Origin: Eledone cirrhosa | Lineage: Eukaryota | Length of the DNA stretch: 64,000 nt | NCBI GenBank assembly: GCA_964016885.1 | Contig: OZ024749.1 | Location: 18,910,001-18,974,000, forward strand | Direction of reading: 5' to 3' | Part shown: piece by piece, positions 48,205 through 48,498 of the stretch | Position numbering within the stretch: the stretch's first letter is position 1 | Layout: each line of letters starts with the position of its first letter | Program-made: the position numbers and the translations under genes | The notes under the pieces: generated by a model | Database searches by the model: none | Told to the model about the DNA's origin: nothing | What the model saw: only the letters and a program-made list of their open reading frames with translations

Positions 48205-48498
48205 TAAAAACAAATAACGAAACGAAATTAAATTTCGTTTCGTTTGTAACTCACTTTTGTATGACTGACGCTTAAACAATTAAGTTAAAAATGTACATCC
48301 ACATATGTATACTGAAATACTAGTATGCATATGAATACACACACGTGTACATATGTAGATGTACCGAGTTTTTCACTGGACACTTTACTGTGAGTGTCCA
48401 GCTATTCTGTATGTAAACACACAGACAAACCGGTTTTTAGAGTCATACTGGTTTTCGAGGAAACACCTTTCCTCTATTCTCCAGAAAGCCAGACAAGG

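Follow-up and report, generated by a model that had tools for sequence, protein, structure and literature searches.

The 64,000-nucleotide stretch of Eledone cirrhosa DNA analysed here (GenBank assembly GCA_964016885.1, contig OZ024749.1, positions 18,910,001 to 18,974,000 of the forward strand; hereafter the window) contains an array of a non-coding 466-bp unit with a predicted hammerhead ribozyme, whose two arms lie head to head in a (TA)n microsatellite and differ at their outer ends by 74 bases found on one side only. These 74 bases are very probably the interval between two fixed 3' ends of a non-coding hammerhead retrozyme, each of the two-armed arrays being the likely product of one event driven by a reverse transcriptase/endonuclease of the type encoded by Penelope-like elements (PLEs). 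Mobilisation in trans by PLE enzymes is supported by the footprints of the insertions and by one chimeric insertion, and no particular PLE family is named as the partner.

The whole array extends from 48204 to 51321 of the window, with a period of 466 bp (1514 of 1520 positions match at a shift of 466; self-comparison and Tandem Repeats Finder, TRF) and with two arms that are 99-100% complementary. Phases of the unit are numbered from window position 48205 (phase 1), the ribozyme sense going from high to low phase, and the two phases at which the arms terminate outwards are called sites A and B. The features of the array and of its surroundings are as follows.

48204/5-50199, minus strand: A arm (left), 4.28 tandem units, ribozyme sense on the minus strand, 3' end at site A, inner end at phase 131
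50197-51321, plus strand: B arm (right), 2.41 units, ribozyme sense on the plus strand, 3' end at site B (phase 75), inner end at phase 267
50197-50199, no strand: 5'-5' junction of the arms, 3-nt overlap GAA, phase 131 joined to phase 267
48205-48278, minus strand: the 'tail', 74 nt between site A (48205) and site B (equivalent to 48279), in the left arm only
48216-48244, minus strand: hairpin within the tail, perfect 13 bp, AACGAAACGAAAT / ATTTCGTTTCGTT, with a 3-nt loop
48483-48554, minus strand: predicted hammerhead motif of type I with a minimal palindromic helix III, ACUAGU (Rfam, sequence)
48949-49020, 49415-49486 and 49881-49952, minus strand: further predicted hammerhead copies (Rfam)
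50580-50651 and 51046-51117, plus strand: further predicted hammerhead copies (Rfam)
42375-48206, no strand: left (TA)n-type microsatellite target (TRF)
51320-52644, no strand: right (TA)n microsatellite target (TRF)

Since the hammerheads lie on the minus strand in the left arm and on the plus strand in the right arm, the outer ends of both arms are the 3' ends of the ribozyme-sense strand and the arms are joined 5' to 5', at an asymmetric junction with no symmetric fold-back. The original prediction, drawn from the letters of the window, had placed the end of the right inverted arm at 51320, equivalent to 48279, and had read 48205-48278 as a one-sided extension at the 3' end of the ribozyme-sense strand. 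Alignment of the arms confirms the extension and locates the arm end within 1 nt of that position (51321, equivalent to 48279/80), the coordinates of the tail being uncertain by 1 nt because of the TA flank. Within the tail region, the centroid fold retains the 13-bp hairpin alone (minimum free energy -20.4 kcal/mol, z -2.54).

The unit has a GC content of 36%, and the longest stop-free stretch in its trimer is 60 codons; because it has no open frame, it is non-autonomous of necessity. A search of the array against Rfam gave six Hammerhead_HH9 matches, one per complete unit, five of them at 38.9 bits (E 1.4e-7) and one at 36.0 bits (E values from 1.4e-7 to 1.2e-6). The predicted core, CUGAUGA...GAAA...GUC, is unchanged in five of the six copies, while the copy at 51046-51117 has an altered core C and reads ATGATGA. 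The predicted cut falls between phases 302 and 301, GUC ending at phase 302.

The genome measures 3.0 Gb, with the window on its contig C9, and a search of it with the unit gave at least 190 matches, 40 of 418 candidates being scored. A first sample of 33 loci (the window and 32 fetched) provided 58 arms of at least 100 nt, belonging to 34 insertion units, and these arms were mapped to the phases of the unit. With three exceptions, they end at A (28 arms), at a variant 3-6 nt short of A (3) or at B (24), that is, 55 of 58. Site A corresponds to phase 465-3 and reads ...TTGTTTTTAT then (AT)n. Site B reads ...TTTTTAACTTAATT, ...TTGT or ...TTGTTTA, then (AT)n, at phases 68-81 by exact extension and 68-75 when a family variant at phase 80 is allowed, and the distance from B to A across copies is 68-75 nt. 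As for the three remaining arms, one is cut by the edge of its locus (B on later mapping) and two are diverged fragments. When both samples are taken together (53 insertion units; for the second sample see below), every assessable arm of at least 100 nt ends at A or B. With the same two end points recurring at all the other copies examined, chance is far from accounting for the one-sided extension in the window.

The flanks of the arms are equally uniform. In 39 of 58 cases they consist of at least 80% alternating TA over 30 nt, nearly all the others being interrupted TA repeats, and neither a poly(A) tail nor a 3' tail like that of a long interspersed nuclear element (LINE) was found at the 55 assessable ends. 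Moreover, exact searches of the whole genome for the end patterns gave 1205 matches for A followed by (TA)5 and 558 for B followed by (TA)5, against 5 and 0, respectively, for reversed-pattern controls; these counts refer to the forward strand only, reverse-strand rows repeating each place two to four times, and the pattern count puts the total of A ends at ~2,400. The inner ends are distributed otherwise, at 50 different phases among the 58 arms. This distribution is non-uniform (chi-square p 0.003), with 15 of 58 inner ends in phases 236-283, just ahead of the ribozyme in the direction of the polymerase, as would fit stalling at a structure. A PLE-type insertion also explains why the arrays resemble palindromic satellites and why assembling and annotating them is difficult.

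The two sites are not combined at random. All 26 two-armed units of the first sample consist of one arm ending at A and one ending at B, the second arm being merely 9-18 nt long, and read from the flanks, in four of them (L034, L036, L037, L064). The other eight units of this sample are one-armed or adjoin another element, and end at A (L035, L042, L045, L053, L063) or at B (L046, L052, L060). The matches listed for contig C1, which cover 0-79.4 Mb, include 69 places of type A and 30 of type B, and the facing pairs among them are 25 A-B, no B-B and one A-A. The second sample was composed of this A-A case, 11 A ends and 5 B ends without a partner by pattern, and one wide pair, giving 19 units. 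A and B are combined in 11 of these, several of them with a second arm of 7-17 nt or with a B end of variant sequence, which had escaped the pattern; one unit is possibly A + B (L115), one is cut by the locus edge (L113), five are one-armed, at A in L108, L112 and L119a and at B in L122 and L124, and the last is the four-segment array L123, described below. At L119, the apparent A-A pair on C1 resolves into a B/A pair and, 3.9 kb away, an independent array with a single A arm.

Considering both samples, all 37 clear two-armed units made of the same family are A + B, so that each has exactly one tail, and the one-armed copies are 8 at A and 5 at B. If the two ends were chosen independently in the proportion 8:5, the chance of 37 mixed pairs out of 37 would be ~0.47^37, i.e., <1e-12 (arithmetic). 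A table of ends, tails, junctions and flanks had been proposed as a check in the original prediction, and its content agrees with it: 55 of 58 arms end at A or B, the flanks are (TA)n and one tail is present in every clear two-armed unit. The contrary outcome named there, with random end points, no tail or TA preference, or poly(A), was looked for and not seen.

Two lines of evidence concern the number of events and of templates. At L062 the insertion lies outside (TA)n, and a B arm of 4.3 units and an A arm of 2.1 units have one copy of ATTATAAAAT on each side of the pair, which makes a 10-bp target-site duplication enclosing the array as a whole. The flank of L062 is a dispersed repeat, and all five paralogous copies of it are uninterrupted at the insertion point, with a single ATTATAATAT; the whole two-armed array was inserted here in a single event. 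Most of the other sites are in (TA)n, where a target duplication cannot be scored. The comparison of empty with filled sites, suggested in the original prediction for alleles, was realised at L062 with five of five empty sites and the 10-bp duplication, the empty sites being paralogous copies and not alleles. Furthermore, variants private to one locus are common to both arms at four loci (L049, L051, L065, L043+44). At L043+44 all 17 units of both arms carry the variant, which occurs at none of the other loci examined (~180 units in all). These shared variants fit one unit-length template copied many times, or a homogeneous multimer, and the data do not separate the two.

Among 22 junctions between arms, 14 have an overlap of 1-22 nt, 2 are blunt and 6 contain a filler of 2-14 nt; 21 of them join different phases, the exception being L058, at the hairpin palindrome. 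The junctions look like end joining. An origin of the inverted arm by fold-back (snap-back) is excluded, as the junctions join different phases and the arms differ in length. The ribozyme cut was likewise considered as the source of the DNA ends and discarded: the predicted cut lies at phase 302|301, and A and B are internal to the cut monomer. Since GUC ends at phase 302, they lie 165 and ~236 nt, respectively, from the 3' end of the self-cut monomer. Nor do the cDNAs end at the 5' end generated by the cut, given that none of 58 inner ends falls at phase 301/302. The pairing of a (TA)n primer with TA-rich RNA does not set the ends either, because ATAT/TATA occurs at nine other phases of the unit, none of which is used as an end.

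Some further observations have been made on the arrays. In L125+L126 (G000:C1:5737800-5752999), a B arm of ~30 units is joined to an A arm of 0.74 unit, and a small indel recurs along the long arm every 3, 3 and 1 units, corresponding to a higher-order period of 7 units, which suggests growth after insertion or a multimeric template. A second hammerhead family is present in the window as a short array (24588-25089) with a unit of ~471 bp and a core, CTGATGATAGCTAACAAGTTTGAAACTAGTA, at 24728-24758. Where the 466-bp unit holds sites A and B, the two families are ~67% similar, and the array terminates in (TA)n at the homologue of site A. This ~471-bp family is also found in tandem in L094, and provides the arm adjoining the 466-bp arm at L035.

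The comparison with PLEs can be made within the window itself, where a PLE here called PLE1 has the following layout.

29697-32775, minus strand: longer 5'-truncated copy of PLE1, with a frameshift near 31762-31771
29697-29752, minus strand: PLE1 tail, 56 nt, unique, at the 3' end of the longer copy
32776-32789, no strand: junction filler of PLE1, 14 nt at the 5'-5' junction; other copies match from query base 15 on
32790-34739, plus strand: inverted 5'-truncated copy of PLE1, ending at the no-tail site, ...AACAATAT then (AT)n

The arms 29753-31702 and 32790-34739 are 100% complementary, and (TA)n-type repeats are found on both sides. It had been noted from the window that the PLE shares the layout of the array, with a tail at 29697-29753, and that both elements sit in (TA)n; both statements hold, the unique stretch being the 56 nt at 29697-29752 and (TA)n bordering both the array and the PLE on each side. 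The coding part of this copy gives a weak RVT_1 match (E 9e-4) and shows, by eye, candidate GIY...YIG motifs and a CX4CxxC linker at its C-terminus, for which the Pfam GIY-YIG model gave no match. Atlas neighbours of the window's PLE1 carry RVT_1 and GIY-YIG, and are a lead only. The 966-codon frame at 25371-28271, tried as a PLE, belongs instead to a LINE with APE, reverse transcriptase (RT) and PHD domains.

The 3' end of PLE1 was searched genome-wide and 30 loci were mapped. Its copies end either at 3030-3037 of the reference (no tail, ...AACAATAT then (AT)n) or at 3050-3093 (tail), and in 15 of 15 head-to-head pairs, the window copy included, one end is tailed and the other tail-less, all of them in (TA)n. 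The canonical build is seen at L134, with an inverted truncated copy carrying the tail, a partial upstream copy (pLTR) and a full tail-less copy. PLE1 is abundant and young, with 1387 candidates, of which the 40 scored (39 besides the one in the window) are 99.6-100% identical over 476 nt. An uninterrupted frame of 1228 codons at C4:918279-921962, together with these near-identical copies, is a predicted source of available enzyme. A second family, PLE2, is ~70% identical to PLE1 in the coding part and has a 57-nt tail. The one-tail rule holds for it in 4 pairs among the matches listed, and a miniature two-armed PLE2 of ~165 nt lies in the window at 25137-25301, inside (TA)n, its left arm with the 57-nt tail and its right arm at the no-tail site. 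PLE1 and PLE2 have in common a terminal stretch of ~100 nt spanning the no-tail site and the tail (L142; window 29697-29836), a candidate cis signal for the reverse transcriptase that is absent from the retrozyme. Unlike the retrozyme tail with its 13-bp hairpin, the PLE1 tail has no stable fold. PLE no-tail ends followed by TA, with up to 2 mismatches, number 13,288 + 13,535 genome-wide (~26,800). As a side observation, a PLE1 copy ends ~2.2 kb from a large two-armed 466-bp array at L070 / L056 (G000:C1:117.899-117.911 Mb), and in the window PLE1 and the 466-bp array are 13.5 kb apart; a common preference for (TA)n is enough to explain this proximity.

The footprints of the retrozyme and of the PLEs are the same in kind. 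A candidate for a more direct trace of their association is L042 (G000:C4:377868700-377874100), where, at locus positions 888-2927, a PLE2 arm of 1172 nt is joined 5'-5' to a site-A retrozyme arm of 1.86 units. There is no TA at the junction, the PLE2 arm, with an open endonuclease-coding C-terminus, ends at its no-tail site and both outer ends are in (TA)n. This arrangement is the trace expected of a two-armed event with a PLE RNA on one side and a retrozyme RNA on the other, and is in this respect suggestive.

From these data a mechanism can be proposed in which a PLE protein would nick both strands of a (TA)n target, and the two DNA 3' ends freed in this way would act as primers within one and the same retrozyme RNA, cDNA synthesis beginning at A from one of them and at B from the other. 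The template would be a circle or a multimer, and each polymerase would pass over it several times before halting at no fixed point, after which the host would join the 5' ends of the two cDNAs through microhomology or with added filler. The role of the hammerhead would be confined to the RNA, where it would cleave unit RNAs and close them into circles; the DNA ends would be set independently of it. As to the strict geometry, the odds are about even that both ends of the break serve as primers for one ribonucleoprotein, possibly dimeric, acting on a single RNA, at fixed start zones 56-74 nt apart and with exactly one tail as the outcome, and that a ribozyme RNA with no likeness to the element, probably a circle, is accepted and copied repeatedly. 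If this is true, the genome holds thousands of natural records of a retrotransposition mechanism otherwise seen in one in vitro system.

Other explanations have been weighed against this one. The repeat might be mobilised by an APE-type LINE, the inverted arm arising by twin priming in the manner of L1. LINEs with APE and RT domains are indeed present in the window (25371-28271, 37582-40466 and 54268-57302), and a LINE 3' end adjoins (TA)n at 37204 and a retrozyme arm at L052 (flank BLAST). Head-to-head 5' inversions are, moreover, a known product of twin priming, in which each side of a single staggered break primes a cDNA and the two cDNAs are linked 5'-5', often with microhomology. The inverted segment begins, in that case, at whatever internal site the second primer anneals to, and the other begins at the poly(A), whereas both retrozyme arms start at fixed zones, one of each in 37 of 37 units, and the 55 assessable ends are free of poly(A) and of LINE-like tails; in addition, the PLE families themselves follow the one-tail rule. 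Mobilisation by a LINE is considered very improbable for these reasons. Even less credit, close to none, can be given to a satellite whose dispersal and inversion took place in the DNA itself, without an RNA intermediate, whether through unequal exchange, replication template switching or the reintegration of extrachromosomal circles. The higher-order periodicity of long arrays (L125+126), which makes some growth after insertion plausible, and the junctions of L123 and L058, centred on the palindromic hairpin, speak for such a process. It does not predict, however, the same two end phases at thousands of unlinked loci (1205 A and 558 B against 5 and 0 in the controls), nor the strict A + B pairing, the scattered asymmetric inner junctions and the 10-bp duplication around a whole array, and DNA circles, on integrating, should leave arrays in direct orientation that begin and end at the same phase, and not inverted arrays. 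A DNA-level process is refuted as the means of dispersal and is possible only as a secondary lengthening of arrays.

Closer to the mechanism proposed above is an insertion of PLE type in which the arms derive from two RNAs or from two events, the pairing of A with B having another cause, such as trimming of one side by the endonuclease. The tail has in fact been ascribed to endonuclease-mediated resolution of an intermediate (PMC8557442), and the chimeric loci L042 and L035 show two different RNAs head to head. The one-armed copies, 8 at A and 5 at B, are nonetheless at odds with it, as an independent choice of ends would give 37 mixed units out of 37 with a chance <1e-12; private variants are common to both arms at 4 loci, and L035, the one cross-family retrozyme pair, joins A to an A-equivalent, as expected if the rule needs a single RNA. 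This explanation is improbable, if somewhat less so than mobilisation by a LINE.

Coming back to a single PLE-type event on one retrozyme RNA, several points weigh against it. The sampled copies are the best-scoring or exact-pattern ones and not a random draw. One structure, L123 (G000:C1:67838800-67845200, locus positions 3344-6083), is made of four segments with B at both outer ends. With ~92% identity it is older, the palindromic hairpin of the tail lies at the middle of its inner 3'-3' junction, and no other structure seen departs from the A + B build. L035 joins a site-A arm to an arm of the second ribozyme family in the opposite orientation; this second arm, distantly related and made of 2.4 units of ~471 bp, ends at the position homologous to A. 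If it derives from one event, L035 is an A + A pair and would fit a one-tail rule that needs a single RNA, two cases being insufficient to establish this. All six HH9 matches (36-38.9 bits) are under the family gathering score of 52, and the hammerhead is a predicted one, with putative cleavage and expression. None of the runs recorded as RNA contains the unit, which has no bearing on its expression. In vitro, the start site of a PLE is no different between top and bottom strands, and a strict one-tail rule is not predicted by this alone (PMC11167929). The tail, moreover, is 68-74 nt in the retrozyme and 56-57 nt in the PLEs, versus 30-40 bp in the papers.

Sequence comparison between retrozyme and PLE is on the same side of the balance. 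Comparison of the unit with the window's PLE1 by blastn-short and blastn gave nothing above chance, and the best local alignments of the B-to-A region with the ends of PLE2 and PLE1 are no better than shuffles (94/500 and 282/500, respectively). A GAAACGAAAT string common to the unit and to the PLE2 tail was dropped because its alignment is no better than shuffles. Rfam reports no hammerhead in PLE1 (the window copy and five loci including the 5' region), and the 466-bp unit is therefore not derived from the PLE1 terminal region; a CTGACGA...GAAA string in the PLE1 3' untranslated region was not counted, having no canonical helix III fold. The terminal (pLTR) homology used as a criterion in a recent preprint (10.64898/2026.07.22.740005) was not found with PLE1 or PLE2. 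Finally, only one PLE/retrozyme chimera is present in 53 units, and with ~26,800 PLE ends in (TA)n a chance adjacency is possible. No further chimera was seen in 47 PLE1 and 30 PLE2 loci, nor in a check of ends by eye in C1 among the matches listed, and among the 30 PLE2 loci only L139, which is the locus of L042, carries the 466-bp unit. The original prediction had already remarked that the two tails are not obviously homologous, which the alignments confirm, and had looked to a PLE family with a shared terminal sequence, which neither PLE1 nor PLE2 provides. Its central proposal, that PLE enzymes mobilise the hammerhead repeats in trans, is supported at the level of footprints, while sequence homology to PLE1 or PLE2 gives no link.

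The rest of the window is also rich in repeats. Positions 1-24219 are a 24-kb minisatellite with an 18-bp unit, AGTGATGGCAGTGATGAC, in ~1350 copies with 87% matches, and the long open reading frames in this region are artefacts, because the minisatellite is open in several frames. Two LINE copies with APE and RT domains and their upstream region (37916-42500 and 52517-57160; 97% and 88% identity) are inverted, with their 5' ends inward, and flank the 10-kb (TA)n tract that contains the hammerhead array. At 57478-57535 on the minus strand, a tRNA-like Rfam match of 29.4 bits (cut-off 29), the sole one at the gathering threshold in the window, adjoins the 3' end of the right LINE copy and is possibly a tRNA-derived short interspersed nuclear element or a LINE tail.

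How animal hammerhead retrozymes move has been an open question since they were recognised as mobile, and the insertions described here bear the signature of PLEs. Their mobilisation by PLEs had already been proposed (PMC7229834, Cervera and de la Peña, 2020), and the same case has been argued in Xenopus from co-occurrence and terminal-repeat homology (Li, Clavereau and Pollet, 2026, preprint 10.64898/2026.07.22.740005). The arguments for a PLE partner in these works are co-occurrence, a common ribozyme type and, in the frog, homology of terminal repeats. Two-armed retrozyme insertions, two fixed 3' ends and a one-tail rule were not found described in the available parts of either work (supplements aside), nor in the wider literature searched. 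What this locus contributes is a side-by-side measurement with PLEs, the evidence of empty sites, the shared private variants and a chimeric locus. The regularity observed (37/37 for the retrozyme, 15/15 for PLE1) implies two coupled initiations on one RNA, at start sites that are internal and unrelated to the ribozyme cut, and a recognition of the template without sequence homology is implied as well.

Among known systems, the inverted partial copy with a short tail is described as a signature of PLE insertion in PMC8557442 and PMC11167929, in keeping with the original prediction. Insertion units of endonuclease-bearing PLEs (Craig et al., 2021, PMC8557442) have an inverted, 5'-truncated head-to-head copy, a tail at one end, tandem partial copies and a bias for (TA)n, and the PLE1 of the window shows all these structural features. 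In vitro, cleavage and extension of both DNA strands have been shown for the purified PLE protein PAc, whose reverse transcription begins inside the RNA, at two neighbouring sites on either side of the tail (PMC11167929). The retrozyme differs from PLE insertion units in that its repeat encodes nothing, has up to ~30 units per arm and has no detectable sequence in common with PLE ends; compared with an autonomous PLE, it encodes neither a reverse transcriptase nor a GIY-YIG endonuclease. It also differs from L1 twin-priming inversions in its lack of poly(A), in the fixed internal zones from which the two arms start and in the length of the arms, which may reach many units. Metazoan non-LTR retrozymes (PMC7229834; LTR, long terminal repeat) are likewise non-coding, AT-rich tandem repeats with one type I hammerhead per unit and no LTR, are dispersed with target duplications of >4 bp (10 bp at L062), coexist with PLEs, and have been proposed to arise as tandem cDNA from circular RNA. 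The unit described here is, at 466 bp, slightly above the quoted 150-450 bp, and has the minimal palindromic helix III that PMC7229834 ties to PLEs and not to canonical retrozyme ribozymes, while the Xenopus families of the preprint have a homology to PLE terminal regions for which no counterpart was found here. On these features, the 466-bp family is assigned to the metazoan non-LTR retrozymes, with a function predicted from its sequence and with an insertion footprint of the PLE type.

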